A stretch of DNA of 64,000 bases. It comes from an uncultured Clostridia bacterium. Lineage in GTDB: Bacteria > Bacillota > Clostridia > UMGS1883. The notes below the pieces were generated by a model. The model was not told the origin of the DNA, searched no databases, and was given only the letters and a program-made list of their open reading frames with translations. The stretch is from positions 19,959-83,958 of the forward strand of contig CANPZO010000006.1 of assembly GCA_947589005.1 (NCBI GenBank), read 5' to 3'. Of this stretch, positions 998 through 24,503 are shown piece after piece (positions within the stretch are counted from its first letter, which is position 1; every line of letters begins with the position of its first letter). The translations under genes and the position numbers were made by a program.

Positions 998-1010
998 ATT
1001 TTCACCTCCC

Positions 1011-1145: not shown

Positions 1146-1157
1146 CCGCCTCACCTC

Positions 1158-1361: not shown

Positions 1362-1376
1362 TTTATATGCCTCCTT

Positions 1377-2090: not shown

Positions 2091-2095
2091 AATTT

Positions 2096-2293
2096 TTACA
2101 TCTCCTTCCCGCCGTCCCTTAACAGCTCGTCAATGCTGCACTTCAACGCCACCGCAAGTGCCTGAAGTGTCGCGACCCTCGGTTTCGCCGCTCCGGCCTC
2201 CCACTTTGCCACCGTAGTTTGGTCTACTCCGACCAACTTTGCCACCTGCGCCTGTGTGAACCCGCGTTCCGCTCTGATTTTTGCCAAATTCAT
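2096..2293 (-). CDS. XRE-family HTH regulator (Cro-like)
   Basis: RAERGFTQAQVAKLVGVDQTTVAKWE motif. The ATG at 2293 with a GGAGG RBS is preferred over the longer ORF-track start at 2311. Confidence 0.8.
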   Translation of the reverse strand: MNLAKIRAERGFTQAQVAKLVGVDQTTVAKWEAGAAKPRVATLQALAVALKCSIDELLRDGGKEM

Positions 2294-2319
2294 TAAATTC
2301 GCCTCCAACAAAATAGAAG

Positions 2320-2348
2320 TTGATTTATATGTGAAAATGTGTTATAAT
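2320..2348 (+). promoter_or_regulatory. sigma70-type promoter TTGATT-17-TATAAT
   Basis: -35 at 2320-2325 and -10 at 2343-2348, 30 nt upstream of the 2378 ATG. Confidence 0.5.
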
Positions 2349-2377
2349 GATATAAATTCATAAAAGGCGGGTATTAC

Positions 2378-3082
2378 ATGGATAAGATATATAAAGTAAA
2401 ACAAGAAGTTTTTAACCTCGGCGGACAGTTAAAAGGAATATATTTAGACGTTCCCCAAAAGTGTCCAAAGTGCGAATACAACGATACACTCCAATTAAAA
2501 ACTCATGTTTCATGGGAGTTTCCTCAATATCTTTGTCAACTTAGCGTTATTTTTAAATGTTGTCACTGTAAAATGCCTACATACGCTATTTATTTGATTT
2601 CCGGTCCTAAATTTTCACCATCATCGCATCTAATAGATGTTTTCCCACGATACAAAAGGGCATCAGATTTTGATTCCATAATTTCAGAAATTTCTCCAAG
2701 ATTCATTGAAATATATAATCAGGCTTATGTAGCCGAGCAAAATAATCTTACCGAATTGTGTGGCATGGGATATCGAAAGGCTTTTGAAATATTCATCAAG
2801 GACTATGTTTTGTCTAAGGAAAATTATAGCGACTCCTATGCAGCAACAATACGTAACGAACAAATATCAGCTACTATAGACCGCCTTAACTCTGATGCCC
2901 ACCCCTTAACCAAAGAACTTGCCAAACGTGTTATTTGGCTATGTAACGACCAAACTCATTACTCCAACTATCACCCAGATAAAAACATTACTGACATAAA
3001 ACAGCTTATCAACGATACGCTGTACTGGCTATGTGTCTCTATCCGCAGTCAGCAATATATAAACGATATAAAGCACAAGTAA
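2378..3082 (+). CDS. zinc-ribbon plus DUF4145-like domain protein (moron, opposite orientation to the early operon)
   Basis: N-terminal CPKC...CCHC. The C-terminal GYRKAFEIFIKDYV...WLCNDQTHY resembles the DUF4145 pattern. The gene is AT-rich. The domain call is from memory of the family pattern. Confidence 0.5.
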   Translation: MDKIYKVKQEVFNLGGQLKGIYLDVPQKCPKCEYNDTLQLKTHVSWEFPQYLCQLSVIFKCCHCKMPTYAIYLISGPKFSPSSHLIDVFPRYKRASDFDSIISEISPRFIEIYNQAYVAEQNNLTELCGMGYRKAFEIFIKDYVLSKENYSDSYAATIRNEQISATIDRLNSDAHPLTKELAKRVIWLCNDQTHYSNYHPDKNITDIKQLINDTLYWLCVSIRSQQYINDIKHK

Positions 3083-3083
3083 G

Positions 3084-3338
3084 CTAAAGTCGTTCATCAC
3101 CCAAATATGCCCTCGTAAGCGTCAATAATGCTTTTGCCATGTTAAACGTAAGCCCACGATCTCTCAACCAAAATATCAAATCCTTTGCGAGTTTTACTGT
3201 TTTTTCGAGTTCTTCGGGTTCCAAATTTTTTAAAACCTCATCTTCTAATGTCGCCGCGATCCGTCTATTAGGCGACATCCTTTTTTGCCATTCGGCCATA
3301 TCGTCAATGTTTTTAATCTCTTGCCCATAAGCGCACAT
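3084..3338 (-). CDS. hypothetical protein, first gene of the leftward (lytic-direction) transcript
   Basis: AGGGGG RBS 8 nt upstream of the ATG, directly downstream of a consensus promoter. Confidence 0.5.
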   Translation of the reverse strand: MCAYGQEIKNIDDMAEWQKRMSPNRRIAATLEDEVLKNLEPEELEKTVKLAKDLIFWLRDRGLTFNMAKALLTLTRAYLGDERL

Positions 3339-3367
3339 CTTTCAACCCCCTAAATGAATTTAATTCA

Positions 3368-3396
3368 ATTATACATGAATTTTTCTCATTTGTCAA
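3368..3396 (-). promoter_or_regulatory. consensus promoter TTGACA-17-TATAAT (leftward)
   Basis: On the minus strand, -35 at 3391-3396 and -10 at 3368-3373. Confidence 0.6.
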
Positions 3397-3439
3397 TACC
3401 TCAAATGAAAATTATTCATTTATTTTTTTATATGCCCCC

Positions 3440-3468
3440 TTTACAAAGTTGAAATTATTTCATATAAT
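3440..3468 (+). promoter_or_regulatory. promoter TTTACA-17-TATAAT for the repressor gene
   Basis: -35 at 3440-3445 and -10 at 3463-3468. AGGAGG at 3494-3499 and a TTG start at 3508. Confidence 0.55.
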
Positions 3469-3491
3469 TATTTTAGATGAAATAATTTCAA
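3449..3491. promoter_or_regulatory. 15-bp inverted repeat operator flanking the -10 of the repressor promoter
   Basis: TTGAAATTATTTCAT (3449-3463) pairs with ATGAAATAATTTCAA (3477-3491). A related ATGAA..TTCAT palindrome lies at 3403-3421. Confidence 0.5.
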
Positions 3492-3507
3492 TAAAGGAGG
3501 GTTTATT

Positions 3508-4140
3508 TTGTTTGCAGAAAGACTACGCGAGCTTAGAACGGAGCACAATTTACAACAAAAAGAACTTGCAAAAAAGCTCTTTGTGGATGCCAGTACTGTT
3601 AGTCAGTGGGAACGAGGTAAAGCTAAACCCGACTATCAGAAACAACAAATGCTTGCCGACTTATTTAATGTATCACTTGACTATTTAACTGGTCGCAGCG
3701 ACACCCTCACTCCTACAAAAAAAGAAGCCAGTCCTCAGACTGGCGTGAAAATTCCCGTTTTGGGTACCGTACGTGCCGGATACCCAATTTATGCCGAAGA
3801 AAACATCCTTGACTACGAGGAAATCTCTCGGCACATGGCCTCCACCGGCGAATTCTTTGCCCTACGCATAGTCGGCGACAGCATGGAGCCACGTATGTTC
3901 TCGGGCGACATCATCATTGTCCGTAAACAAGAATATATCGACAGTGGCGACATCGCCGTGGTCCTTGTTGACGGCTTCGAGGCCACTGTCAAAAAAGTAA
4001 TAAAACAGGACAAGGGAATTATGCTCATTCCACTCAACAGTAGTTGTGACTACGAACCCACCTTCTATTCCTCAAAGGAAATCGAAACACTTCCCGTCGC
4101 CATTCTTGGCAAGGTGGTCGAAGTCCGTGGCCGAGTGTAA
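3508..4140 (+). CDS. CI/LexA-like phage repressor (XRE HTH plus S24 peptidase domain)
   Basis: N-terminal LRTEHNLQQKELAKKLFVDASTVSQWERG. The C-terminal VGDSMEP...DIAVV is the S24 signature. Confidence 0.85.
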   Translation: MFAERLRELRTEHNLQQKELAKKLFVDASTVSQWERGKAKPDYQKQQMLADLFNVSLDYLTGRSDTLTPTKKEASPQTGVKIPVLGTVRAGYPIYAEENILDYEEISRHMASTGEFFALRIVGDSMEPRMFSGDIIIVRKQEYIDSGDIAVVLVDGFEATVKKVIKQDKGIMLIPLNSSCDYEPTFYSSKEIETLPVAILGKVVEVRGRV

Positions 4141-4181
4141 TAAAAAATGAACAAAAATATGAAATGAGGAATATATGCTCT

Positions 4182-4466
4182 ATGAAAAAAATCTTTTGCA
4201 CAATATTGTTAGTCTTAGATGTTTTGTCTTTTTTGATATTAGGATTTTTGTCACAATTTCTAATCAAGGTTGATGATGTAACCGGTTTGGTAACAGACGG
4301 TTTCGGCAGGATTTTATCAGATACGCCGTACCTTTTACAGAAGGTCGGACTTTACGAATGGGCCGGAATAAAATGGTTTATTATTGACTCAATTTGCGGA
4401 TGGGCAATGATTGCTATAGCTTATTTTCTGTTTACTGCCATTTGGGGAAACAAGGATGATGTATGA
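4182..4466 (+). CDS. small membrane protein
   Basis: Hydrophobic N-terminal and C-terminal segments. ATG 4182 has a GAGGA RBS. The stop overlaps the next start (ATGA at 4463-4466). AT-rich. Confidence 0.5.
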   Translation: MKKIFCTILLVLDVLSFLILGFLSQFLIKVDDVTGLVTDGFGRILSDTPYLLQKVGLYEWAGIKWFIIDSICGWAMIAIAYFLFTAIWGNKDDV

Positions 4467-5014
4467 TGATATTTTTCAACAAAAAATATACTTACCATAA
4501 TATCTTGCTAAAACATTACAAAAATATAGTAAGAATTTTAAAACAATACTGTAAAAATTATCTTGATGAATTTGCATACAGCGACCTTCTATCGCTGCTT
4601 TATGTCATTGTTGACGTGTATTTTTGGCAATTAGATGCCACCCGTCGTCAAGAAGTCGTTATCGGATGTTTTGACAAGGAAATCATTAAACTGTGCAACG
4701 AAAATCCAGAGTACGAGGAAAAATTTTATAAGCGAGTTGATTTTTACTCATCGTTTGTAACAGGTGAACGTTTTCCCATATTTAACTGCTGTATTACTAT
4801 GGAAAAATCCTTAACAATAGACTTTGCAAATAAAAGCGTGTTATTTCGTTTGTTGGTTGCCTTTTTTGATTGTCTTATTAATTCCTCGTGTCGAGATGAC
4901 TATGACAATGCAAAGTTTATAATTCCAACAAACAACTTGCTCTTATTAATTCCAAACTGTATCATTCCAGAAATGGTTCAAGAAATAATTTCTCTCAAAA
5001 AAGAATTAATATAA
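4463..5014 (+). CDS. hypothetical cytosolic protein, no recognisable motif
   Basis: 183-aa ORF translationally coupled to the upstream gene. AT-rich. Confidence 0.5.
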   Translation: MMIFFNKKYTYHNILLKHYKNIVRILKQYCKNYLDEFAYSDLLSLLYVIVDVYFWQLDATRRQEVVIGCFDKEIIKLCNENPEYEEKFYKRVDFYSSFVTGERFPIFNCCITMEKSLTIDFANKSVLFRLLVAFFDCLINSSCRDDYDNAKFIIPTNNLLLLIPNCIIPEMVQEIISLKKELI

Positions 5015-5053
5015 GCGCGGTGCAGTTTTTATAATTACGTGAGGTGAAATTAC

Positions 5054-5362
5054 ATGATTACATATATTGTTGGCACAATTTTTGCTATACTTGGTCTTGT
5101 TGGCTACTATGCAAACATTCTTCCACTCTTAATCATTGCTGTGGCATTTATAGTCACGGAGGCAATTGTCGAACTGACAAAGGGAACATTAAATAATATA
5201 AACACATATATTAGCGCTCTCGTTATTGGGCTTATAGTATCACTGATATTTAAATTGAATATCCCACTGACCTTATGCGTTTCACTATGCTACGAAGAAC
5301 TTGTTATGACGGGTATTTCGTTAATTTTTATAATTATATCACTCACTAAAAAACAAAAGTAG
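5054..5362 (+). CDS. small multi-pass membrane protein
   Basis: About four hydrophobic segments. GAGGTG RBS. Confidence 0.55.
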   Translation: MITYIVGTIFAILGLVGYYANILPLLIIAVAFIVTEAIVELTKGTLNNINTYISALVIGLIVSLIFKLNIPLTLCVSLCYEELVMTGISLIFIIISLTKKQK

Positions 5363-5386
5363 TGTGATACACCATGATATCACCGT

Positions 5387-5455
5387 TCTTATCGCCGTCA
5401 TCGCCGTTACGGTTATTGTCTATGTCGCCTACAACATTGGCCTGTAACAGTAGGT
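5387..5455 (+). repeat. 69-nt dispersed repeat, copy A
   Basis: 66 of 69 positions identical to 5927-5995, at an offset of exactly 540 nt. Confidence 0.9.
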
Positions 5456-5502
5456 CGGATGCCGCCATTCTAACCTGGCAAAACCACAATGTTAGGTATA
5501 CA

Positions 5503-5534
5503 AATAAAAAAATAACGTCCCATCTCGGGACGTA
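5503..5534 (-). terminator. intrinsic terminator of the 5556-5759 gene
   Basis: ACGTCCC/GGGACGT stem (5516-5522 / 5528-5534) followed by a U-run on the minus strand. Confidence 0.6.
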
Positions 5535-5555
5535 TAAATTTCAAGACTATGCGTT

Positions 5556-5759
5556 TTATAAAGCAGCAACGTCACTATCATTAACCACATCTGCTAAAAA
5601 CGCCTTTGCTTTTTCAATGCTTATTCCTTTATAGGCAGCCAATTGTTCCGCTAAAATTCGCGATTCCGTTTGAAACATCGCTAAAGCGTCCACCGGTTTA
5701 GCGGATAACTTCACTTCGCAGATGTTTTTCTTATTTACCTTTGCTTTTATATAGCTCAT
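5556..5759 (-). CDS. hypothetical 67-aa protein
   Basis: AGGAGG RBS 8 nt upstream of the ATG, and its own terminator. Confidence 0.55.
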   Translation of the reverse strand: MSYIKAKVNKKNICEVKLSAKPVDALAMFQTESRILAEQLAAYKGISIEKAKAFLADVVNDSDVAAL

Positions 5760-5818
5760 AATCGCGCCTCCTGCTGTTTTGTTAATATATTAACTGCTAA
5801 TGTTAAATACGTTTTTTT

Positions 5819-5827
5819 GGGGGGGGG
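5819..5827. repeat. G9 homopolymer preceded by T7
   Basis: tttttttggggggggg read directly, about 60 nt upstream of the 5759 start codon. Confidence 0.9.
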
Positions 5828-5897
5828 CGGTATGTGTACAAGATATTATTTAACTCTATAATAAATTATACCATAAACAACTTGACATTGCAACCCC

Positions 5898-5927
5898 TTG
5901 GCGTGAAAATTAAAGTTGCTACACATT
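5898..5927 (+). repeat. 30-nt perfect direct repeat X, copy 1
   Basis: TTGGCGTGAAAATTAAAGTTGCTACACATT is identical to 6988-7017. Confidence 0.95.
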
Positions 5928-5995
5928 TCTTATCGCCGTCACCGCCGTTGCGGTTATTGTCTATGTCGCCTACAACATTGGCCTGTAACATTAGG
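5927..5995 (+). repeat. 69-nt dispersed repeat, copy B
   Basis: See copy A at 5387-5455. Confidence 0.9.
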
Positions 5996-5999
5996 CAAG

Positions 6000-6019
6000 G
6001 CTGTGACGTTTCTTAGCGA
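6000..6019 (+). repeat. 20-nt direct repeat Y, copy 1
   Basis: GCTGTGACGTTTCTTAGCGA-type sequence, 19 of 20 identical to 6913-6932. Confidence 0.8.
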
Positions 6020-6100
6020 TGTACGATAGGGGCAAAAAATATAAATCGGGCGAATTGCAAAAATTTTTTAAAAAAAATCAAAAAATTTCGAATTTTTCTG

Positions 6101-6129
6101 TTGACAAAACTGAAACCGGGCAGTATAAT
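6101..6129 (+). promoter_or_regulatory. perfect consensus promoter TTGACA-17-TATAAT
   Basis: -35 at 6101-6106 and -10 at 6124-6129, with an A/T-rich UP-like tract upstream. Confidence 0.65.
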
Positions 6130-6162
6130 ATATGTGTAAAGTCGCTTTACGCTATGTTAATC

Positions 6163-6225
6163 AGCTCTTGGGAGTAAGTCCCCCACCATCAGGGGAGTTC
6201 AGAAACCAAGAGCTTTTATATTTTT
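6163..6225 (+). promoter_or_regulatory. structured 5' leader: long stem-loop plus U-tract (terminator/attenuator-like)
   Basis: AGCTCTTGG (6163-6171) pairs with CCAAGAGCT (6206-6214). An inner TCCCC/GGGGA stem is present. The structure is followed by TTTTATATTTTT and ends 20 nt before the NYN start codon. Confidence 0.5.
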
Positions 6226-6245
6226 ACTGAGGATGTGATGAAAAG

Positions 6246-6950
6246 ATGAAAACGGCAATTCTTGTCGATGGTGGATTTTATAGGTGTCAAAGTTATAGGC
6301 TTTTTGGCGAGAAAAATCCCGAAGACCGTGCCGATGAATTGTTTAGGTACTGTAAAAAGCATTTGTCAACCAAGTATGCGAATTATGACTTGTATCGCAT
6401 TTTTTACTATGATTGCCCTCCGCTGAATAAACAGGTATACAATCCCATAACAAAAAAGAGCGTTGACCTCTCAAAATCGGAACTGTATTTGTGGATGACG
6501 GAATTTCTTACTAAGTTAAAAGGAAAACGCAAACTCGCGCTTAGACTCGGTAGAATATCAGACACAAAAGTTATCTATACCCTGCCTGACGATACTGTAA
6601 AAAAGCTTCTTACAAGAACAATCTCTATTGATGATATAACAGAGAACGATTTAAAGCTGAATGTTAGGCAGAAAGGCGTTGATATGAAAATTGGCGTCGA
6701 TATTGCCTCTATGGCTTTTAAAAGGCAGGTCGACCAAATAGTGCTTATAGCCGGAGACAGCGATTTTGTTCCGGCAGCAAAACTTGCGCGGCGCGAAGGG
6801 ATTGACTTTATTCTTGACCCTATGTCTAATCATGTTTCAGACGATCTTTTCGAACACATTGACGGAATACATACCCACTATAAAAAATTTACCAATACGA
6901 CGGACCAGCAAAGCTGTGACGTTTCTCAGCGCCGTACAGTAGGGGATTGA
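6246..6950 (+). CDS. NYN (LabA-like, PIN-related) domain protein, predicted ribonuclease
   Basis: AILVDGGF...GVDMKIGVDI...LIAGDSDFVPAAKLARREG matches the NYN/LabA acidic-residue pattern. The last ~15 codons run through repeat Y. Confidence 0.8.
   Translation: MKTAILVDGGFYRCQSYRLFGEKNPEDRADELFRYCKKHLSTKYANYDLYRIFYYDCPPLNKQVYNPITKKSVDLSKSELYLWMTEFLTKLKGKRKLALRLGRISDTKVIYTLPDDTVKKLLTRTISIDDITENDLKLNVRQKGVDMKIGVDIASMAFKRQVDQIVLIAGDSDFVPAAKLARREGIDFILDPMSNHVSDDLFEHIDGIHTHYKKFTNTTDQQSCDVSQRRTVGD
6913..6932 (+). repeat. 20-nt direct repeat Y, copy 2
   Basis: See 6000-6019. The TAG of copy 1 is CAG here. Confidence 0.8.
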
Positions 6951-6987
6951 CACAAAAGCACCACACCATATATTAATTTTGAACATA

Positions 6988-7017
6988 TTGGCGTGAAAAT
7001 TAAAGTTGCTACACATT
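6988..7017 (+). repeat. 30-nt perfect direct repeat X, copy 2
   Basis: Identical to 5898-5927. Confidence 0.95.
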
Positions 7018-7030
7018 GTCGTTTGTATGC

Positions 7031-7059
7031 TTGACAAAATCTCGTTTTTGTGATATAAT
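7031..7059 (+). promoter_or_regulatory. perfect consensus promoter TTGACA-17-TATAAT for the TA operon
   Basis: -35 at 7031-7036 and -10 at 7054-7059. Confidence 0.65.
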
Positions 7060-7088
7060 GATTGTAGATAATTAGAGGAGATGATTTT

Positions 7089-7352
7089 ATGGCACAGACA
7101 ACACAAGTTAGTTTTCGTATTGACGAAGATGTAAAACACAGCGCCGAAAATGTCCTTGACGATTTGGGGCTCACTCTGTCGGCGGCAATCACGGTTTTTT
7201 TAAAAAAGGTAGGCAGAGAACACCGTATCCCGTTCGACCTTTCGGTAGACCCTTTTTACTCTGAAAGCAATATCCGCTATCTTGAGCAGAAAATGGAGGA
7301 CTATAAGGCGGGGCGGCTCAACTTTGCGGAGCATGAGCTCATAGAGGATTAA
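7089..7352 (+). CDS. type II antitoxin, RelB/DinJ family
   Basis: QVSFRIDEDVKHSAENVLDDLGLTLSAAITVFLKKV is a ribbon-helix-helix DinJ-like N-terminus. It lies directly upstream of a YoeB toxin gene. Confidence 0.8.
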   Translation: MAQTTQVSFRIDEDVKHSAENVLDDLGLTLSAAITVFLKKVGREHRIPFDLSVDPFYSESNIRYLEQKMEDYKAGRLNFAEHELIED

Positions 7353-7357
7353 CGCCT

Positions 7358-7630
7358 ATGCAGACAAGGATCATTCAATGGGATTTTGACGCATGGGGGG
7401 ATTACATCTTTTGGCAAACGCAGGATAAGAAAATCCTGAAAAAGATAAATCAGCTTGTAAAGGAGATAAGCCGTAACCCGTTTGAAGGCATAGGCAAGCC
7501 CGAGCCGTTAAAAGATAATCTTTCGGGCTTTTGGTCGCGGCGTATTGACGACGAGCACAGGCTTGTTTATGCTGTTGAAAATGATAAAGTTTTAATTATC
7601 TCGTGTAAAGGGCATTACAATAAAAAGTAA
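7358..7630 (+). CDS. yoeB: type II toxin, Txe/YoeB family
   Basis: WQTQDKKILKKINQLVKEISRNPFEGIGKPEPLK...SRRIDDEHRLVY...ISCKGHY is a typical YoeB sequence. Confidence 0.9.
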   Translation: MQTRIIQWDFDAWGDYIFWQTQDKKILKKINQLVKEISRNPFEGIGKPEPLKDNLSGFWSRRIDDEHRLVYAVENDKVLIISCKGHYNKK

Positions 7631-7685
7631 GTCCGCTGTACTGACAGGAAAATTCAACTATTTGAAAATTTCGAGCAGTTGAAAT

Positions 7686-7702
7686 GGTTACAAATTGTAA
7701 CC
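7686..7702. repeat. perfect palindrome GGTTACAA-A-TTGTAACC
   Basis: 8-bp arms around one central base, immediately 5' of the REP copy. Confidence 0.7.
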
Positions 7703-7703
7703 G

Positions 7704-7730
7704 GTAGGGCGGCTTGCCTTCAAGCCGCCG
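7704..7730 (+). repeat. REP-like element (GTAG plus 9-bp GC hairpin)
   Basis: GTAGGGCGGCTTGCCTTCAAGCCGCCG is identical to the copy at 52874-52900 (opposite strand). Confidence 0.85.
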
Positions 7731-7877
7731 TTCTACACAAAATAAAATGAGGTCTCCGGTGTGGGCGCACCGAAGACCTCGGGGAGTAGTACATGATATT
7801 ATCACATACTTAACAAGTGTATTATATCATGTGCGCTCCGATTTGTCAATCATTTTTGAAAAAGGAGTGTGTTTTTT

Positions 7878-8996
7878 ATGCCAAAGACCCGCTATACCAA
7901 GCGTTCCGACGGGCGCTATCAGGTTAAGATAGGTGTGGGCAAATCCCTTGAGGGTAAAACCATATATAAGACCCTCTACGCCGCCACTGAACGAGAGCTG
8001 CGCGCCAAGAAGGACGCTCTCAAGCTCCAACTGTCCCAGGGCGTATATGTTGACAACGCCACTCAAACTCTCGCACAGTGGGCTCGTGAATGGCTTAGGA
8101 CATATAAAAACAACGTGTCCTATAACACATATGCCATGTATTCAAACATCGTCGAAAAGCACCTTGCCGTTTCCGACATTGCCAGCGTGCCGCTTAAAGA
8201 CATAAAGCTTTTTCACCTTCAACAGCTCATCAATCAAAAGGCCGCCGCCGGCCTCACACGTACTCTCGAGCTTCTGAAATGCACCCTTGACCAGATTTTT
8301 GACGCGGCGATCAACAATGACATGCTGCTGAAAAATCCAACCCGTGGGCTTGAGCTGCCCAAAAGGGAACACAAAGAAAAGCGGGCCCTCACTCCTGACG
8401 AGCGAACCGCCATTGAGAAAGCAGATTTCACGCCAAAACAGCGGGCCTTTGTGTATCTCGGCCTCTATGCCGGTCTGCGCCGGGGTGAAATACTCGCGCT
8501 CACCACTGACGATATCGACCTTGAAAACCGAATTATACGGGTCAACAAGAACCTTGTGATAAATAACGCTTACACCGAAATAAAGGCCAGCCCAAAGACT
8601 GACGCCGGTTTTCGCGACGTAATGATACGCCAGCGGTTGTACGATATCCTTGCCGAATATATTGCGTCTAAACCACCCGGACAACTATTTACAATGAATA
8701 ACGGGGAGTTAATGACATCTTCAAGCTACACCAAGTTTTGGAAGGGTATAGTCAATGCCATATCCGCTTCCGCCGCATCCAATGGTCTGAGTATTGATAT
8801 AGAAACCTTAAGTTCTCATATTCTGCGACACACCTGCGCCACGGATATGTTTTACAGCGGGCTCGACCTAAAGACCGCCCAGCGCCAGCTCGGACATTCC
8901 CGCGCGGACACCACGCTCAATATTTATACCCACTGCCAAACATCAAATGCGGAGGCTCTTGACAAAATGAACAATTATGACAAACGCACCTCGTAA
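7878..8996 (+). CDS. int: tyrosine recombinase / phage integrase
   Basis: The C-terminal HILRHTCATDM...LGHSRADTTLNIYTH gives the R..H..R..Y catalytic signature. AAAGGAG RBS 10 nt before ATG 7878. Confidence 0.9.
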   Translation: MPKTRYTKRSDGRYQVKIGVGKSLEGKTIYKTLYAATERELRAKKDALKLQLSQGVYVDNATQTLAQWAREWLRTYKNNVSYNTYAMYSNIVEKHLAVSDIASVPLKDIKLFHLQQLINQKAAAGLTRTLELLKCTLDQIFDAAINNDMLLKNPTRGLELPKREHKEKRALTPDERTAIEKADFTPKQRAFVYLGLYAGLRRGEILALTTDDIDLENRIIRVNKNLVINNAYTEIKASPKTDAGFRDVMIRQRLYDILAEYIASKPPGQLFTMNNGELMTSSSYTKFWKGIVNAISASAASNGLSIDIETLSSHILRHTCATDMFYSGLDLKTAQRQLGHSRADTTLNIYTHCQTSNAEALDKMNNYDKRTS

Positions 8997-9017
8997 TGGG
9001 ATTTTTTGTCACCGGGT

Positions 9018-9069
9018 TTGACACCCATTTTGACACCCAAAGCTTTCTTGACACCCACTTTGACACCCA
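9018..9069 (+). promoter_or_regulatory. four direct TTGACACCCA repeats (putative integrase arm-type sites)
   Basis: Copies start at 9018, 9030, 9048 and 9060, just after the int stop codon. Confidence 0.6.
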
Positions 9070-9125
9070 AAATTTGTGTATGTATGTGTACAAATTGGAA
9101 CCCCTCGACCCAAATTCCCGAGACG

Positions 9126-9175
9126 CAAAAAGCCCGTGGTTATCGAGAATACCGACAACCACGGGCTTTCTTGTT
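9126..9175. terminator. bidirectional stem-loop between int and tRNA-Lys
   Basis: AAGCCCGTGGTT (9130-9141) pairs with AACCACGGGCTT (9157-9168), with U-runs on both strands. Confidence 0.6.
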
Positions 9176-9176
9176 C

Positions 9177-9252
9177 TGGTGAGCCATCCGGGAGTCGAAC
9201 CCGGGACAACTTGATTAAAAGTCAAGTGCTCTGCCAACTGAGCTAATGGCCC
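9177..9252 (-). tRNA. tRNA-Lys (anticodon UUU)
   Basis: Hand-folded cloverleaf with anticodon loop CTTTTAA, GTTCGACTC T-loop and encoded CCA. Confidence 0.9.
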
Positions 9253-9256
9253 ATAG

Positions 9257-9333
9257 TGGCTGGGCTGGCAGGATTCGAACCTGCGAATGCCAGAGTCAAA
9301 GTCTGGTGCCTTCACCGACTTGGCTACAGCCCA
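9257..9333 (-). tRNA. tRNA-Gln (anticodon UUG)
   Basis: Hand-folded. Anticodon loop CTTTGAC, T-arm GCAGG-TTCGAAT-CCTGC, CCA encoded. Confidence 0.85.
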
Positions 9334-9450
9334 AAATTGAGTGGCATCTCAGGCCGTCAAGCGATCCGTACCGCCGGAAGCACCGGCCGCCGTCCGCCCT
9401 GCCGAAGTTATGCCGCCCCAAAAGGTGCGGCCTCCGGAGCGTAAAAAATG

Positions 9451-9528
9451 TGGGGTGGGTACTGGGATTCGAACCCAGGGCCTCCAGAGCCACAATCTGG
9501 CGCGCTAACCAACTGCGCTATACCCACC
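9451..9528 (-). tRNA. tRNA-His (anticodon GUG)
   Basis: Hand-folded. Extra 5' G(-1), anticodon loop TTGTGGC, CCA encoded. Confidence 0.9.
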
Positions 9529-9584
9529 ATATCGACCGGCCCCCACGGAGCCATCCGAGAACGCCCCGCACATGGCCGGGAAAA

Positions 9585-9661
9585 TGGCGTGCCTGCGGGG
9601 ACTCGAACCCAGGACCTACTGCTTAGAAGGCAGTTGCTCTATCCAGCTGAGCTACAGGCAC
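9585..9661 (-). tRNA. tRNA-Arg (anticodon UCU)
   Basis: Hand-folded. Anticodon loop CTTCTAA. One U-C mismatch in the T-stem. Confidence 0.85.
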
Positions 9662-9670
9662 ATAAAAATT

Positions 9671-9744
9671 TGGAGCGGGTGATGGGAGTCGAACCCACCT
9701 ATCCAGCTTGGAAGGCTGGTATTCTACCGATGAACTACACCCGC
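9671..9744 (-). tRNA. tRNA-Gly (anticodon UCC)
   Basis: Hand-folded. Anticodon loop CTTCCAA, CCA encoded. Confidence 0.9.
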
Positions 9745-10183: not shown

Positions 10184-10351
10184 TTATTGCAGCTTTTTCC
10201 ACTGTTTGTAGCCATCGTTAGTGGCCGTGTCGGTAATGGCGGTAAGTCCGCTGGGCGAGTCGCCGCTGATGAGCAGCACGCTGTCCATAACGCTGTTTAC
10301 GGCCGCAAGCTCTTTTGTTTCAACTATCGGGGCTTTAAATTCCTTTTTCAT
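10184..10351 (-). CDS. 55-aa hypothetical peptide co-oriented with the LamG gene
   Basis: Hand translation gives MKKEFKAPIVETKELAAVNSVMDSVLLISGDSPSGLTAITDTATNDGYKQWKKLQ. A strong AAGGAGG RBS is present. It starts 18 nt after the LamG stop and is below the ORF-track cutoff. Confidence 0.45.
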   Translation of the reverse strand: MKKEFKAPIVETKELAAVNSVMDSVLLISGDSPSGLTAITDTATNDGYKQWKKLQ

Positions 10352-10369: not shown

Positions 10370-13300
10370 TTACAGTTCGGGGATAAGGGCAACGTCGGCG
10401 TCCGCGCCGTCGGCCCCGGCCTCTTCAATTATGGTTTCTACAAATTCAATGTTTACGCTGTCAAGAGACAGAATGACGGCATCTTGAGCAAACGCAGGAT
10501 CGTTGGACAGGGTAACGGTTTTTGCTTCCTCGTCTATCTTCATGTACTGATAAACGCCATTACCTTCGCCAACGGCAGAAGCTGTTGCTTCAACCTCGCT
10601 GCCGACATAAATTTTGCCACTGCCTACGGTAAATCCTATACCCTTGTCAAATATAGTCTGCTTAATCATAACGCTGTTTTCAGAAGAATCGTTCTTCTCC
10701 ATGATTTCACTTCTTACCTCATCTAAGGTATCAGTGCTTAAGATACCGCCCTCGGCGATAACCTTGTTGGCCGCGGCGAGCTTGTCGGCCTTCATGTCGC
10801 CTGTTTCGGCGGCAACGGCCTTAACAATAAGCTCGTAAACGCTTACGGCATCGCCCTTAGTTTCCTTGTCTCCATCAACGGCAACGGGAGTGTAGTTACG
10901 GTTTGTTGCCTTGGTCTTAAGAGTGACGCCCTTTTCGGCTGTTTCGGGAGCCTCGCCAATTGTGTTGTCGCCATCCACAACCTTTATGGTCTTGCCGGGG
11001 ATGATGCCGTAGGTAAAGTCTATGGTGAACTCACCATCGTCGTAACCAAGTGTGGCCACAGGCTTAGAGGGGAGCGCATTCGGGTCATAAACTCTTACGT
11101 TGGAAATTTTAATTCCGTCATTAGGTTTGCCCGCTCCACATACATCAATACTGTTGATTTCTTTTAACCTTTCATCGCGGAAGCAGATTGCAGGAGAAGT
11201 TTTTACTGTACCGTCATGAGATATAACTGTAACAGTCACCTCACCATTAGTTACGGAAGCATCACCTTTTACAAGTACACGGTAGGTTTCGCCGGTGGAA
11301 ACTCCTTCAAGTATGTCTCTTCCACCGCCACTTACAAACTTTTTGCCGTTATCTGAATCAGTGCTTGTGTCTGTTCCGTCTCCGCCTGTAACATTGATCT
11401 TGTGATTGTTTGTACCAATACCAAAGCCGGAATCTGCGTTGCCCCATCTGCCGCCGTTTTTGCCGAACTGTACGCTGTAATCATCAATGGCGTCGATTAC
11501 AAGGTCAAATTCAACATAGAATTTTCCCGTAATGTTATTTGGCAAATCAATTCTCGTACGGTTCGCACTCATACCCTCAAGAGCATAGCTGGAAGGAAGT
11601 ACATTTACTTTTACGGATACGGGCGTATTCCCAATTTTTCCGTTGACAGTTATCGGCGCGTCAGTTACAGTGGTCAAATCAGCCTCTTCCCAAACAACAT
11701 TTTCGGTTTTCTTTGAGCCGTATTCACCGGTTACATCAAATTGAGTGGGAAGCGAGCTACCGCTGAGAATGGAAATTTCATCAAAATTATCCTTAAATTC
11801 ATAATTGGTTTCCTCAAACTGTAACTTGGCAATTTCATCCTGTGTTAAGGCTACAGAATATACCTTAAATTCGTCAATATAACCGCTGTAAAGATTATCA
11901 CCCCAGTTAGATGCTCCAATATAATATTTTAATTGGCTGGCGTCAAGATTTGCAATTTCGGTGAAGTCTTTAGCGTTTTTGACATCTACCTCACGACTTA
12001 TTTCTCCGTCCTGATATACCACAGCGTGCCAATCGGTGTCATTGACTTTTTCAAGAGTCGTTGCAACATGATGCCATACTTTAGGTGTAACGGAAACATT
12101 GTCCGCTTTGATAGTTTCTCCGCTGATACTACCCTCACATTGGAACAAATTCCAACCGCTGTTGGCGTTGTTTATTGCGAAGTATATATCCCCTTTAGTT
12201 CCATCGGACGTTTCTTTATCGCCTACGCCGAAATCATAAAGTCTTGCCCAGTCGTCTCTTGAAAGATCTTTATTTACGTAAGCGGAAACCGTGAACGCTT
12301 TAGATGTTTTAAATCTTTCATCACTGAACAAATTGTCATTAATGCTTATTACATCAGCATCAGCATAACCGTTACCGTCACCGGGCATATAAGCCGCTTT
12401 ACCGTGAGGGCCGGCTTCTCTGATTTCAATTTTGTCTCCGACTGTAGCTGCATATTTTTCTGCATTGGGTGCGCTATTCTTTCCTTTTTCGGCATCACCT
12501 TCAAAGCTATAGTGTGCAACAAGGAACGCTTCGTCCTCAACAGTCTCTTTTACAGTAACATTTGCTGTAACGGTTACGTTGCTGTAATCCTTGAGGGTAC
12601 CCTCTACCTTATAAGCGGTGGTATCAGTCGGGACCTTACCGGCGTTTGTGGTCCAATTTACCTCAAGGCCGGGATAGTCCTTCTCGCTTGCGGCTCCCTT
12701 CGCGGTAACTGTTTTGGAAAGCTTTGCCGCAACTCCCACTCTGGTTGTGAGCTCAATATCATCAACCGTAAGAGTTTCCTTAGTATACTGTACACTTACA
12801 TCATTTTGAGAGGATTTAATTGTATAGCTGCTCAAATCCGCGTTCTCAGATTTGATGTAAATATTTCCATCTGTATGCTGGATAATGCTGGGCGCATATT
12901 CCTCGTTATTCACAAAGTCTATAGTGTCGCCCTCTATGCCGCGAATGGTCTTGGAGCCAAGATTTACATCACCGGCAACATATTTTGTATTTACATCTAC
13001 ATAAGGAATTTCACCGGCGTATACCTTAAAATCGCCGAGAGCGACCAATGCCCAAGCTATATTGTATTGCTGTGAAAATTCTTTAAGGGTTTTGAAACCG
13101 TTAACAAAGCCTTCGCCGGATGTAGTCATTTTTTCAACGGTTACATAACCATCGCCCGTATTTTCCTGATAATATACAGTATGCGTGGGGTTAGACGTAT
13201 CACTGCCGTTTATTACAACTATTCTTTGAAGCGGTTCAGGCTCATCAGGTGATTTTATACCGGTAAACGCGGAACTATCATTTTTGTCAAAAAGGAAAGA

Positions 13301-13903
13301 AGCAAATTCCTTGTCATCTTTGTCGTAAAATTTAAATCTGTAATAGAAAGCACTCTGATTGCCATAGTTATGCTGACGAACCCATTCAATAGCAATATAT
13401 GTTCCATCAAGAGATTCTTTTTCGCTGCCATATCCTGGGGTGGTAATTTTAACATTTTGGTCTTTTTTCAACTGATCTTTGTTGTCACCATCACCGCCTT
13501 TATTCGCTGTCCCTTGAAATTTCAAATAGTTCTTCTCTGTTGCCGTTTCCTCATTCGCAGCTTTCTTACTATATTTCTGAAGGCCACCTTGAGCTTGGTT
13601 AGATGGCTGTTCGAACCATTTTTCGTCATTTAAGTCAAGCTCGTTGTTTTCAGTATCGTAGTAGTATGCCTTCCACCCAGTATAAGCACTTACGCTCTCA
13701 GCAGAGCCGCCAACGCTTGGAAAGCTAGCGCGATCACCGTTGAATTTAATATCGCCTATGTTGACGACTTTGTCAATGAGACCGGGTTTGACCTCAAGCG
13801 TTACAGTATCGTCCGCCGCCCCTGCGGTGATTCCGAACATGGGCACTACTGCCATTACCATGGCGAGGACCACGGTCAACGACAGAATTTTCTTAATTCT
13901 CAT
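10370..13903 (-). CDS. large secreted surface protein with a LamG/concanavalin-like lectin domain
   Basis: Signal peptide MRIKKILSLTVVLAMVMAVVPMFGITAGA. LamG-type block FTVSAYVNKD...WARLYDFG...WHHVATTL...YIGASNWGDNLYSGYIDEFKVYSVALTQDEI. AAGGAGG RBS. Visibly lower GC than its neighbours. Confidence 0.8.
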   Translation of the reverse strand: MRIKKILSLTVVLAMVMAVVPMFGITAGAADDTVTLEVKPGLIDKVVNIGDIKFNGDRASFPSVGGSAESVSAYTGWKAYYYDTENNELDLNDEKWFEQPSNQAQGGLQKYSKKAANEETATEKNYLKFQGTANKGGDGDNKDQLKKDQNVKITTPGYGSEKESLDGTYIAIEWVRQHNYGNQSAFYYRFKFYDKDDKEFASFLFDKNDSSAFTGIKSPDEPEPLQRIVVINGSDTSNPTHTVYYQENTGDGYVTVEKMTTSGEGFVNGFKTLKEFSQQYNIAWALVALGDFKVYAGEIPYVDVNTKYVAGDVNLGSKTIRGIEGDTIDFVNNEEYAPSIIQHTDGNIYIKSENADLSSYTIKSSQNDVSVQYTKETLTVDDIELTTRVGVAAKLSKTVTAKGAASEKDYPGLEVNWTTNAGKVPTDTTAYKVEGTLKDYSNVTVTANVTVKETVEDEAFLVAHYSFEGDAEKGKNSAPNAEKYAATVGDKIEIREAGPHGKAAYMPGDGNGYADADVISINDNLFSDERFKTSKAFTVSAYVNKDLSRDDWARLYDFGVGDKETSDGTKGDIYFAINNANSGWNLFQCEGSISGETIKADNVSVTPKVWHHVATTLEKVNDTDWHAVVYQDGEISREVDVKNAKDFTEIANLDASQLKYYIGASNWGDNLYSGYIDEFKVYSVALTQDEIAKLQFEETNYEFKDNFDEISILSGSSLPTQFDVTGEYGSKKTENVVWEEADLTTVTDAPITVNGKIGNTPVSVKVNVLPSSYALEGMSANRTRIDLPNNITGKFYVEFDLVIDAIDDYSVQFGKNGGRWGNADSGFGIGTNNHKINVTGGDGTDTSTDSDNGKKFVSGGGRDILEGVSTGETYRVLVKGDASVTNGEVTVTVISHDGTVKTSPAICFRDERLKEINSIDVCGAGKPNDGIKISNVRVYDPNALPSKPVATLGYDDGEFTIDFTYGIIPGKTIKVVDGDNTIGEAPETAEKGVTLKTKATNRNYTPVAVDGDKETKGDAVSVYELIVKAVAAETGDMKADKLAAANKVIAEGGILSTDTLDEVRSEIMEKNDSSENSVMIKQTIFDKGIGFTVGSGKIYVGSEVEATASAVGEGNGVYQYMKIDEEAKTVTLSNDPAFAQDAVILSLDSVNIEFVETIIEEAGADGADADVALIPEL

Positions 13904-13981
13904 TTTTGTTACCTCCTTAAATTACTAATAAATAAATTTTTTGTTTCACGCGCGGTTCGTATAAGGAACATTATCGGAAGT

Positions 13982-14007
13982 AAAAAAACAGGCCGTTTTT
14001 GGCCTGT
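13982..14007 (-). terminator. intrinsic terminator active toward the LamG gene in the present orientation
   Basis: ACAGGCC/GGCCTGT stem (13988-13994 / 14001-14007) followed on the minus strand by U7. Confidence 0.55.
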
Positions 14008-14099
14008 TGCATATTTCCGTGCCCGTATAAAACGCGGTTTTTGTTAAATATATACAAAAATATAAACCCAAATTTATACATTATTGACCAACGGGCTTC

Positions 14100-14129
14100 T
14101 TGACTTTTGGACGGCAAAAGTAGTATAAT
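14100..14129 (+). promoter_or_regulatory. promoter TTGACT-18-TATAAT inside the IR-bounded segment, pointing away from the LamG gene
   Basis: -35 at 14100-14105 and -10 at 14124-14129. Confidence 0.6.
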
Positions 14130-14301
14130 TAAATCATGGAATTTCATGTGCTCGTATGGGAAAATATCGGAAAAAGGCGAAATAATACCTTTTTCCGACG
14201 GCCGCCGACGCAGAGGTCGACTGGGTTCCGGCGCCGCTCGGACAAGCGTATATCCGTTTTTACTTCCGATAATGTTCCTTATAGGATATTGCATAAAAAA
14301 T

Positions 14302-14328
14302 CGGCGGCTTGAGGGCAAGCCGCCCTAC
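14302..14328 (-). repeat. REP-like element (GTAG plus hairpin)
   Basis: The reverse complement reads GTAGGGCGGCTTGCCCTCAAGCCGCCG. Confidence 0.85.
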
Positions 14329-14361
14329 GTTTATCATTTCGACTTTAGGCAAAACATGGCA

Positions 14362-14400
14362 CAAAAAAACGGCGGCTTGAGGCAAGCCGCCGTTTTTTAT
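14362..14400. terminator. bidirectional terminator of proBA, using the same stem as the REP family
   Basis: GGCGGCTTG-AGG-CAAGCCGCC flanked by A7 and T6. Confidence 0.7.
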
Positions 14401-14419: not shown

Positions 14420-15670
14420 CTATTCCCGCACCTGGCCGCGGCCGAGGATTACGTATTTACAGGTCGTCAGGCCCTCCAAGCCCACGGGCCCACGGGCGTG
14501 GAGCTTTTGGGTGGATATGCCTATTTCCGCCCCGAAGCCGAACTCGCCGCCGTCGGTGAAGCGGGTGGAGGCGTTGACATACACGGCCGCCGAGTCTATC
14601 TCGTCCTGAAAACGGAGGGCGTTGTTATAATCATTCGTAACTATGCACTCGCTGTGGCCGGTGGAGTGCCCGTTGATAAAGTCTATGGCCTCGCCGATGC
14701 CGCCCACAACCTTGACCGAAAGTATATAATCCAAAAACTCGGTGTAATAGTCCTCCTCGGTGGCGGCGGAGACGCCGGGCAGAATGGCGCGGGTGCGCTC
14801 GTCGCCCCGTATCTCAACATTGTTTTTGTCGAGCAGAGCCTTCGCCATGGGCAAAAATTCCTCCGCCACGCTCTCGGCCACGACAAGGCTCTCGGCGGCG
14901 TTGCAGACCGAGGGACGGCTGCACTTGGCGTTGTATATTATCTCGGCGCCCATCTTCAAATCGGCGCTGTCGTCGATGTAAACGTGGCAGTTGCCGGTGC
15001 CGGTCTCAATCACCGGCACGGTGGCGGTCTCCACCACGGCGCGGATAAGACCCGCCCCGCCCCGAGGTATCAGCACGTCGATGTATTTGTTCATTTTCAT
15101 CATGGCGGCGGCGGTATCCCTGCCGGTGTCGCCGACAAAGCACACGCAGTCCTCGGGCAGACCGCTGTCCCCTATCGCCCGCCGCATAACGTCCGCGATG
15201 GCCTGATTTGACCTGACGGCCTCGCTGCCGCCGCGGAGGACGCAGGCGTTGCCGGATTTGAGGCAGAGGGCCGCGGCGTCGGCGGTGACGTTGGGACGGG
15301 CCTCGTATATAATGCCTATGACGCCCAGCGGCACCCGCTTTTTGCCGATAAGGAGACCGTTGGGACGGGTGACTACGCTGTCGAAGCCCCCAATCGGGTC
15401 GGGCAGGGCCGCCACCTGACGCAGACCGTCGGCCATGGCCCGAACGCGCTTTTCGTCCAGGACAAGCCGGTCGATGAGGTTCTCCCTCGTGCCCTTTTCC
15501 CTGGCGGCGGCAACGTCGAGGGCGTTGGCCGCGAGTATCTCTCCGGCGGCCGTCTCTATGGCGCCGGCCATGGTCAGCAGAGCCCTGTTTTTCCGTTCGG
15601 TCCCCGCCGTCATCAGTTGTCTCGAGGCGGCTTTCGCGGCCCCGCAAAGCTCGGTTATGTCAAACATCAC
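14420..15670 (-). CDS. proA: gamma-glutamyl phosphate reductase
   Basis: Full-length aldehyde dehydrogenase-type ProA sequence (...EARPNVT...GNCHVY...). ATGA overlap with proB. Confidence 0.9.
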   Translation of the reverse strand: MMFDITELCGAAKAASRQLMTAGTERKNRALLTMAGAIETAAGEILAANALDVAAAREKGTRENLIDRLVLDEKRVRAMADGLRQVAALPDPIGGFDSVVTRPNGLLIGKKRVPLGVIGIIYEARPNVTADAAALCLKSGNACVLRGGSEAVRSNQAIADVMRRAIGDSGLPEDCVCFVGDTGRDTAAAMMKMNKYIDVLIPRGGAGLIRAVVETATVPVIETGTGNCHVYIDDSADLKMGAEIIYNAKCSRPSVCNAAESLVVAESVAEEFLPMAKALLDKNNVEIRGDERTRAILPGVSAATEEDYYTEFLDYILSVKVVGGIGEAIDFINGHSTGHSECIVTNDYNNALRFQDEIDSAAVYVNASTRFTDGGEFGFGAEIGISTQKLHARGPVGLEGLTTCKYVILGRGQVRE

Positions 15671-16458
15671 AGCTTCCTCCCCGAAAAAAATGTGCCGACT
15701 TCTTTCCCGTCCAAAAAATCATATAGGTTTTCCGGATGCGCTCCGTTGGTAATGAGCATATCTATGCCGTTGGCCATGGCGATGCGGGCGGCCTCCAGCT
15801 TGGTCTGCATACCGCCGGTGCCGCGGCTGCTGCCCGCGCCTCCGGCCACCGCCACGATGTCATTGGTTATCTCGTCCACCCGCCGTATAAGGGCGGCGTT
15901 TTTGTCGGTGCGGGGATTGCCGGTGTAAAGGCCCTCGATGTCGCTTAAAAGCACGAGCAGATCCGCCCCGCACAGGGCCGCCACCACGGCACTGAGGGTG
16001 TCGTTGTCGCCGAAGCCGTGGACGTTCTGAATTTCGTTTATCGAAACCGAGTCGTTCTCGTTCACAATGGGAATGGCCCCCTGCTCCAGCAGGGCGCGGA
16101 AGGTACTGACGAGATTGTCCTCACGTTCGCCGCCGTCCACGTCCTCCCGTGTCAGGAGTATTTGGGCCACGATTTTATTGTATTCGGCGAACATTTTGTC
16201 GTACAGGTGCATCAGGCGGCACTGGCCCACCGCGGCGGCGGCCTGCTTGAGCCTGAGCTCCGCCGGACGGTAGGGCATTTTCAGCCTTGACACGCCCACG
16301 GCTATGGCGCCCGAGGATACCAGCACCACCTCCGCGCCGCTGTTCTTTATATCGCTTAAAACCGCGGCCAGCCGTTCCATGTTCCGCAGGTGCAGCTCGC
16401 CGTTGGGGTAAGTCAGGGTGGAGGTGCCCACCTTGACGACTATACGTTTGTAATTCAT
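15667..16458 (-). CDS. proB: glutamate 5-kinase (short form, no PUA domain)
   Basis: KRIVVKVGTSTL...VSSGAIAVG...IVNENDSV. The ATG at 16458 with a GGAG RBS is preferred. Confidence 0.9.
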   Translation of the reverse strand: MNYKRIVVKVGTSTLTYPNGELHLRNMERLAAVLSDIKNSGAEVVLVSSGAIAVGVSRLKMPYRPAELRLKQAAAAVGQCRLMHLYDKMFAEYNKIVAQILLTREDVDGGEREDNLVSTFRALLEQGAIPIVNENDSVSINEIQNVHGFGDNDTLSAVVAALCGADLLVLLSDIEGLYTGNPRTDKNAALIRRVDEITNDIVAVAGGAGSSRGTGGMQTKLEAARIAMANGIDMLITNGAHPENLYDFLDGKEVGTFFSGRKL

Positions 16459-16531
16459 AGCTTCATCTCCAAGATGTGTTTGTATAAATTTTAGCACAAA
16501 ACCGCGGCCCCGTCAAGTACGGCGGCGCAAT

Positions 16532-20075: not shown

Positions 20076-20078
<3 letters not shown>
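20033..20078. terminator. bidirectional terminator between ackA and the GH2 gene
   Basis: AGCAGGAGA (20038-20046) pairs with TCTCCTGCT (20065-20073), flanked by A-run and T-run. Confidence 0.7.

Positions 20079-24503
<4,425 letters not shown>

Follow-up and report, generated by a model that had tools for sequence, protein, structure and literature searches.

A 64-kb stretch of DNA from an uncultured Clostridia bacterium (64,000 nucleotides of contig CANPZO010000006.1; hereafter, the window) carries a 324-bp unit (13960-14283) upstream of a gene for a 1177-amino acid (aa) secreted protein with a laminin G (LamG) domain. Our analysis indicates that this unit very likely belongs to a family of invertible promoters (invertons) with copies at multiple loci, by which an uncultured, spore-forming lineage of gut Clostridia phase-varies a repertoire of large and variable proteins, either secreted or at the surface. 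The unit had been singled out from the letters of the window alone (the original prediction) as an inverton in the OFF state, i.e., with its promoter facing away from the gene. This reading gained support from two sides: The orientation of the conserved promoter marks the window copy as OFF, and a homologous switch in front of a paralogous gene does invert. The window switch is thereby supported by comparison with its paralogs rather than directly at the window locus. The properties of an inverton were found as follows: a segment bounded by inverted repeats beyond chance expectation; both orientations within unchanged flanks, at the level of the family; and a promoter that, judged by its sequence, would drive the neighboring gene in one orientation only.

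The inversion itself was observed at a paralogous locus. A pattern search in representative genomes returned no relatives of the LamG protein; they emerged only from the protein database, where a search that gave few relatives yielded P0002 (1144 aa, 54% identical) and P0006 (1252 aa). Both genes occur in the same three European Nucleotide Archive (ENA) samples as the window gene and at similar coverage, and they therefore probably belong to the same organism. Each is preceded, ~70 nt upstream of its start codon, by a homologous unit with the same promoter at the same distance to an AAGGAGG ribosome-binding site (RBS), in which an inverted repeat of 24 to 34 nt encloses 269 to 270 nt. Upon comparing two assemblies of the P0002 locus, L090 (ERZ27249211) and L092 (ERZ27249206), we observed 0 differences in the flanks over 4.4 kb, while the inner 270 nt were the exact reverse complement of each other, with the promoter directed toward the gene in L090 (ON) and away from it in L092 (OFF). 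Such a pattern is the signature of conservative site-specific inversion and shows that elements of this family do flip under natural conditions. The window copy presumably still flips as well.

At the window locus, the inverted-repeat search recovered a perfect 27-nt repeat (13960-13986 and 14257-14283) with an inter-arm distance of 270 nt, just as had been predicted, and the repeat pair extends to 30 nt (13957-13986 and 14257-14286) if one mismatch is allowed. The 27-mer has only these two sites in the 64-kb window at up to three mismatches, and 0 of 100 shuffles reproduced it. The parts of the switch and its immediate surroundings are the following:

13987..14256, no strand: invertible segment, 270 bp between the perfect repeats, present orientation OFF; homologous to segments of 269 to 274 bp at 12 other loci
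14100..14129, + strand: family promoter TTGACT-18-TATAAT, 11/12 to the sigma-70 consensus, predicted start at ~14136
13987..14008, - strand: intrinsic terminator within the segment, an 8-bp stem followed by T7; -13.5 kcal/mol, z = -3.6
Junction sequences: the proximal repeat ends ...GGAAGTAAAAA at 13986; CGGATATACGC is the reverse complement of 14246-14256
14303..14324 (acts on the - strand) and 14364..14398 (acts on both strands): two related terminator hairpins that separate proA from the distal site, the second of which would end the OFF-state + strand RNA at ~14400
15667-16497 and 14420-15667: proB and proA, upstream of the LamG gene and in the same direction, followed by the two terminator hairpins
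10370..13903, - strand: the putatively controlled gene, encoding the 1177-aa secreted protein with a signal peptide, a Laminin_G_3 domain (residues 527-692), and a family-conserved C-terminal region of ~230 aa

The predictions made for the inside of the segment stood up well. The TTGACT-18-TATAAT promoter was recovered at the same site on the + strand, aimed away from the LamG gene, with its 11/12 match; the minus-strand terminator facing that gene was confirmed by its hairpin and T7 at -13.5 kcal/mol; and the 11-bp hairpin at 14167-14198 (-14.2 kcal/mol) proved real by both repeat search and folding. Nor did we find a promoter-like site on the - strand from the proximal repeat to the RBS, in keeping with the statement that there is no second promoter between the left repeat and the RBS. 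In the OFF state, the terminator of the segment stands between the upstream proBA operon and the LamG gene and is directed at the gene. A strong in-segment terminator is peculiar to the window locus, which lies directly downstream of proBA, and to L103, an allele from another sample; the other family members have weak hairpins in this place. One or two strong intrinsic terminators are, furthermore, located just beyond every distal site of the family, oriented for the OFF-state promoter, so that OFF-state transcription would be limited to a short RNA. The + strand RNA of the original prediction was to contain the 11-bp hairpin and a repetitive extragenic palindromic (REP) element and to end at the proBA terminator. 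The hairpin is there, whereas the presumed REP element (14296-14330) is the terminator hairpin 14303-14324; we rejected it as a REP element since the 64 kb hold only the two neighboring terminator hairpins and no further copy. A 58-aa open reading frame (ORF) at 14136-14312 was rejected as coding because its start codon is not conserved across the family. Within the segment, a third, degenerate copy of the inner half of the repeat (TATGGGAAAATATCGGAA) lies at 14155-14172, 78% identical to 13962-13979, a stretch that runs into the 5' arm of the 11-bp hairpin.

The family extends into sister species. The two-arm pattern TATCGGAAGTAAA-N255-285-TTTACTTCCGATA occurs at seven loci in 185,579 representative genomes, all of them in two sister metagenome-assembled genomes (MAGs), and each of the seven lies ~70 nt before a gene of ~890 to 1110 aa or a gene truncated by the end of the locus. 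Further look-ups added the switches L107/L108 and L103. In total, no fewer than nine additional copies (at least nine) belong to the two sister species, which are known from MAGs of rabbit gut. The source organism has at least three two-site loci, with four more in Lapin-008_bin63 and at least four in Lapin-021_bin62 (GCA_947630975.1), and the copies are dispersed, as illustrated by three on one contig at ~212, 241, and 341 kb. All 13 loci share a fixed distance to the paralogous gene that follows and a homologous leader. The promoter (TTGACTTTT...GG.AAAAGTAGTATAAT) is nearly invariant, although the paralogous proteins share only 30 to 54% identity, and its -35 element, -10 element, and most of the spacer between them are kept in 10/10 aligned family members. 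Searches with the window repeat alone gave 0 exact matches of a 22-mer in the same 185,579 genomes and, for a 20-mer in the Joint Genome Institute (JGI) metagenomes, three single matches that lie within coding sequence of unrelated organisms and are attributable to chance. In Lapin-021_bin62, a solo complete site, ACTTCCGATAA-TATTCCC-TTATAGGAAGT (L104:2413-2441; also L105 and L106), precedes the RBS of a family gene of 1537 aa by ~60 nt, with no partner site, family promoter, or invertible segment; the switch has either decayed or did not form in the first place.

The ends of the segment hold a pair of candidate core sites for recombination:

13954..13981, no strand: gene-proximal core site, with outer arm GGTTCGTATAA (13954-13964), spacer GGAACA (13965-13970), and inner arm TTATCGGAAGT (13971-13981)
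14262..14289, no strand: distal core site, with inner arm ACTTCCGATAA (14262-14272), spacer TGTTCC (14273-14278), and outer arm TTATAGGATAT (14279-14289)

Recomputing these sites returned the 11-6-11 layout that had been described, with arm symmetries of 8/11 and 7/11 about the 6-nt spacer, and the case is strengthened by other copies (L093, L097, and L100-L102), in which the two arms mirror each other as inverted copies, perfectly or at 10/11. From outer arm through spacer to inner arm, the consensus of the family reads ACTTCCGATAA - N6 - [T/C]TATCGGAAGT, with the consensus arms ACTTCCGATAA and TTATCGGAAGT. Inner arms match it at 9 to 11 of 11 positions across the site table (10 or 11 in all except one), those of the window at 11/11; distal outer arms are mainly 11/11, and proximal outer arms read ACTTCNTATAA. 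Of the 13 tabulated site pairs, 12 have the same spacer at both sites, and the two window sites have identical spacers, while six spacers occur among the pairs as a whole (GGAACA, GGACAG, GAAATG, GGAATG, GAAATA, and GTATTA). Two sister-species copies carry one-base mismatches between their sites: The spacers of L097 read GGAATG and GGAATA, and the inner arm of L099 begins with C at one site and with T at the other. Three contigs of the MAG that carries both have an identical gene-proximal site and leader. The mismatches could reflect locked switches or exchange between copies.

Tyrosine recombinases bind the arms of their sites and need homology in the overlap region, as is established for this enzyme family. 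The suggested resemblance to Xer/dif sites was found to hold in part. Shared with dif are two inverted arms of ~11 bp about a center of 6 to 8 bp, here in an 11-6-11 arrangement with ...ATAA / TTAT... at the spacer borders, and the family arm ACTTCCGATAA agrees at 9/11 positions with the left arm of the Bacillus subtilis dif site (ACTTCCTAGAA-TATATA-TTATGTAAACT; PMC3025954), which points to a tyrosine (Xer-like) recombinase. The agreement with the right, XerD-side arm TTATGTAAACT is 7/11, and both family arms are of the left type in place of a XerC-type and XerD-type pair. Moreover, whereas dif is present once per chromosome near the terminus, the family forms inverted pairs at many loci, two sites each, with a spacer that depends on the locus. 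Because the XerD arm and the single-copy feature fail, the family sites are not dif, yet they would appear to work like a symmetrized dif half-site.

We found no recombinase gene beside any copy of the family, and the enzyme therefore probably acts in trans, as had been proposed. The most economical reading, by analogy, is an unlinked, trans-acting master recombinase of the kind established for RecV of Clostridioides difficile and Mpi of Bacteroides fragilis, which act on dispersed switches (PMC5903667). The earlier remark that no recombinase gene is adjacent holds for the neighborhood of the switch; it needs to be amended for a tyrosine integrase gene 4.9 kb away (7869-8996), besides which no recombinase was found elsewhere in the 64-kb window. 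This integrase lies directly against tRNA-Lys, where a low-GC island has its edge, looks like the island's own integrase, and scores far under all Xer and invertase model cut-offs. A search confined to its close relatives found none in the representative genomes, including the two family-bearing MAGs, which are incomplete. We rejected it as the invertase, as a generic phage-type enzyme beside tRNA-Lys that lacks a close relative in the sister genomes.

The reconstructed ON-state leaders measure 207 to 212 nt in all copies, ~207 nt for the window, and are composed of a part that inverts with the segment and a fixed part, the gene-side flank, which is homologous in all family members:

14136..14256, + strand: invertible leader part, with the 5' strand of a long-range helix (14141-14151), the 11-bp hairpin (14167-14198), and the conserved box GCAGAGGTCGACTG (14210-14223)
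13904..13953, - strand: fixed leader part, with the 3' strand of the long-range helix, GCGCGTGAAAC (13943-13953), the RBS AAGGAGG (13912-13918), and the start codon (13901-13903)

In the RNAalifold model, a helix pairs the extreme 5' end AUUUCAUGUGC with GCGCAUGAAAU of the fixed flank, and a long hairpin is tipped by the invariant box GCAGAGGTCGACUG; in the leader alignment, the invariant box reads GGCGCAGAGGTCGACTGC, with the window version GACGCAGAGGTCGACTGG at 14207-14224. Within this model, 97% of the cells of the alignment are paired, compared to 33 to 40% in slid controls, and compensatory changes occur in seven pairs. Since these values were drawn from nine related sequences, and from a structure derived from the same sequences, they are only suggestive of a family-conserved structure of the ON-state leader. 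A (C/G)ATGAAAT-like motif is also present in the distal flank, such that the terminal helix may form in the OFF-state RNA as well. Rfam gave nothing above threshold for the segment or leader, the sub-threshold matches being the terminator hairpins.

We propose that a tyrosine recombinase encoded elsewhere would bind the dyad arms ACTTCCGATAA and TTATCGGAAGT of the two inverted core sites, and that strand exchange within the 6-nt spacer (GGAACA in the window; matched per locus and different between loci) would flip the 270-bp segment. In the OFF state, the promoter at 14100-14129 would fire away from the gene and yield a dead-end RNA of ~270 nt, running from ~14136 to ~14400 and stopping at the 14364-14398 terminator, while the segment terminator (13987-14008) would stop proBA read-through into the LamG gene. 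In the ON state, the promoter would point toward the gene and produce the ~207-nt leader, its predicted start being the equivalent base of the inverted segment, with the segment terminator shifted to the far side and directed outward. The promoter is predicted to be active on the strength of its motifs, and the tyrosine class of the recombinase is presumptive, derived from the layout of the sites.

The gene behind the switch appears to be exchangeable. In L103, the same proA-side flank, repeat, and leader are followed by a different, 1127-aa protein (L103:454-3837), which resembles the window protein only in the signal peptide (29/30) and in the last ~230 residues (42%). As the protein thus differs behind the same switch, and as the GC content of the LamG gene is 39 to 49% compared to ~60% in its neighbors, we take the middle of the protein to be an exchangeable cassette behind a constant switch. 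With the gene exchanged between strains, expression and antigenic type could vary independently. A small ORF accompanies the gene throughout the family:

10184..10351, - strand: 55-aa ORF (MKKEFKAPIVE...QWKK), directly after the LamG gene and conserved after every family member

A homolog of 52 to 57 aa follows each paralog examined; the 55-aa ORF had no match in Pfam or NCBIfam.

Exact searches with the LamG and ProA proteins led to three ENA contigs (L001-L003) that carry the whole locus, with the segment oriented as in the window in 3/3. Over 10.35 kb, the sole differences between L001 and the window were nine transitions and two single-base indels, all within the segment (14000-14095), and L002 and L003 each differ from the window at a single position, inside the segment as well. 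We rejected hypermutation of the segment in L001 because the same variants are found in the L103 allele; the L103-type variants rather indicate a recombination patch between alleles, which makes L001 a mosaic. Two Logan contigs from different runs, L005 and L006, both stop at 14271, inside the distal repeat. These ends were rejected as a sign of switch heterogeneity and are not evidence of inversion: As 14271 equals 14301 - 30 and the L103 allele has a single-nucleotide polymorphism at 14301, a strain-polymorphism branch in a k = 31 graph explains where the contigs end. Among genomes, the nearest are those two Clostridia MAGs from rabbit gut, whose ProA proteins are 88 to 89% identical, and in neither was the LamG gene or a switch found downstream of proA, such that synteny offers no comparison of orientations. 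Both states were found at the paralogous P0002 locus, while the window locus was OFF in every assembly.

Several observations weigh against a working switch in the window or in the family. The window locus is OFF in 5/5 independent assemblies (the window, L001, L002, L003, and L103, which are consensus assemblies); among ~20 assembled family instances, ~19 are OFF and one is ON; the ON contig stems from a low-coverage (~6.6x) metagenome assembly; and the outer arms of the window sites (ATATCCTATAA, 8/11, distal; GGTTCGTATAA, 7/11, proximal) are among the most degenerate of the family. The one serious alternative, which concerns this copy only, is that the window copy descends from a working inverton, has lost its outer arms to decay, and no longer flips, leaving the gene permanently silent or reached by read-through only. 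The proximal outer arm is indeed the weakest of all proximal arms, and the solo site L104 of the sister species, which lacks a segment, indicates that family members do decay. We nevertheless consider such a locked copy unlikely, given that its 27-nt repeats are still identical, spacer included, that its inner arms are 11/11, and that its promoter and leader are intact. L090, a copy that flips, has outer arms of 9/11 itself, and distal arms of other copies stand at 6-7/11. Since OFF is the majority state at every other locus, finding it in 5/5 assemblies is weak evidence for a lock. We judge it very improbable that L090 and L092 differ through an artefact of assembly or through a rare inversion mediated by RecA, with no dedicated system behind it. 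The low coverage of both contigs (~6-7x) and repeats of 24 to 27 nt, close to the lower limit for homologous recombination, would fit this explanation, but the dyad sites keep their arms while their spacers vary over at least 13 loci in three species, which homologous recombination does not need. The 24-nt repeats are, in addition, shorter than the assembler's larger k-mers, and either orientation therefore needs reads that span the junctions.

Other explanations concern the enzyme or the nature of the unit. Serine invertases (Hin/Gin/Mpi type) have sites with a 2-bp crossover core. The best-known multi-locus promoter-inversion regulon, that of B. fragilis Mpi, does use such an enzyme (PMC5903667), but arms of ~11 nt about an asymmetric spacer of 6 to 8 nt, variable between loci and matched within them as for a tyrosine overlap region, and an arm like the XerC-side arm of dif make it quite improbable that the switch proposed here is flipped by one. 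Still less can be said for a miniature inverted-repeat transposable element (MITE) or a transposon remnant with terminal inverted repeats, in which an outward promoter would be a matter of chance and no regulated switch would exist; we regard this as exceedingly improbable. In its favor are the shortness of the unit, the inverted repeats at its ends, and its multiple copies, and one could take the TA at the outer end of each repeat for a duplicated TA target. Of the features by which a MITE was to be recognized, however, only the multiple copies were found, and target-site duplications and unrelated insertion sites were not. As stated earlier for this unit, the flanks (GCGCGGTTCG and GGATATTGCA) share nothing beyond the palindromic TA within the repeat. 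Every copy is equally spaced before a paralogous gene, with a homologous gene-side flank (leader, RBS, and signal peptide) and a partly homologous far side, and this fixed distance and the homologous flanks indicate that the copies arose by duplication of a gene module, not by transposition. The absence of the 22-mer from the representative genomes and the chance nature of the 20-mer matches also speak against a mobile element, which would furthermore leave the exact in-place inversion of L090/L092 unexplained. A bolder version of the inverton reading is that the switches are palindromized dif half-sites with XerC-side-like arms, flipped by the cell's own Xer-type dimer-resolution recombinase or a recent paralog of it, with locus-specific spacers preventing recombination between copies and with OFF copies emitting a structured ~270-nt RNA (conserved leader domain plus terminator) that might affect the single ON copy in trans. 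We regard this as a long shot.

Switches of this kind are well known. E. coli fimS is flipped by tyrosine recombinases, and the cwpV switch of C. difficile acts via a terminator in a leader that is read from a fixed promoter. From cwpV, the window family differs in that it carries the promoter itself inside the segment. With fimS it shares an invertible segment of ~300 bp that holds only a promoter between short inverted repeats (296 bp excluding repeats in fimS; PMC5903667), whereas fimS is a single locus with recombinase genes beside it and the window family is multi-copy without an adjacent recombinase. The RecV switches of C. difficile (cwpV, flagellar flgB, and Cdi sites) are likewise short, inverted repeat-bounded segments in Clostridia, located 5' of surface-related genes that vary between on and off, and there an unlinked tyrosine master recombinase acts on several dispersed sites (PMC5903667), as we propose for the window family. 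Most C. difficile switches, however, have unrelated repeats (PMC5903667), while the window family is homologous in repeat, promoter, and leader and belongs to one paralogous gene family. The Mpi regulon of B. fragilis resembles it in its many dispersed invertible promoters with a common repeat consensus, an unlinked recombinase, and a role in surface diversification (PMC5903667 and references in PMC11892184). That system has a serine recombinase, belongs to Bacteroidota, and controls capsular polysaccharide operons, in contrast to the tyrosine-like site layout, Clostridia host, and giant secreted proteins of the window family. In general, invertons are known to occur near surface genes in gut Clostridia (PMC11892184). 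A search of the available literature with the arm sequence returned only unrelated primer or sequence matches, and the window switch family is previously undescribed; what is new lies in the palindromic, dif-like sites, in spacers that differ from locus to locus, in the exchange of cassettes, and in a structured leader.

In a spore-forming and still uncultured lineage of gut Clostridia, there is a repertoire of giant variable secreted proteins with one promoter switch each. All of these switches appear to be wired to one unlinked recombinase, which would make the system a counterpart, in Firmicutes, of the capsule system of Bacteroides. The consensus ACTTCCGATAA-N6-TTATCGGAAGT, in inverted pairs ~300 bp apart, offers a search pattern for further copies and a handle on the recombinase, and the locus specificity of the spacers hints at a way for many copies to exist side by side in one chromosome without scrambling it. 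In metagenome assemblies, switches of this type account for contig breaks and for apparent "differences" between strains.

The rest of the window provides the setting. Positions 1-9252 form a low-GC (32-47%) integrative island that ends at tRNA-Lys (9177-9252), with a cluster of five tRNA genes following at 9177-9744. Besides the phage-type tyrosine integrase (7869-8996), its cargo includes a LexA-like helix-turn-helix plus S24 repressor (3508-4140), XRE-type regulators, a RelB/YoeB-like pair (7089-7630), and a NYN-domain protein (6246-6950). Farther along lie genes for a GH2 beta-galactosidase with a C-terminal LamG domain (1471 aa; 20076-24491), a choloylglycine (bile-salt) hydrolase family protein (31705-32676), and a GH30 plus ricin-lectin protein (38606-41329), followed by SpoIVA (51131-52609) and SpoIIR (62539-63135). 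By their predicted functions, these context genes indicate a spore-forming gut commensal.

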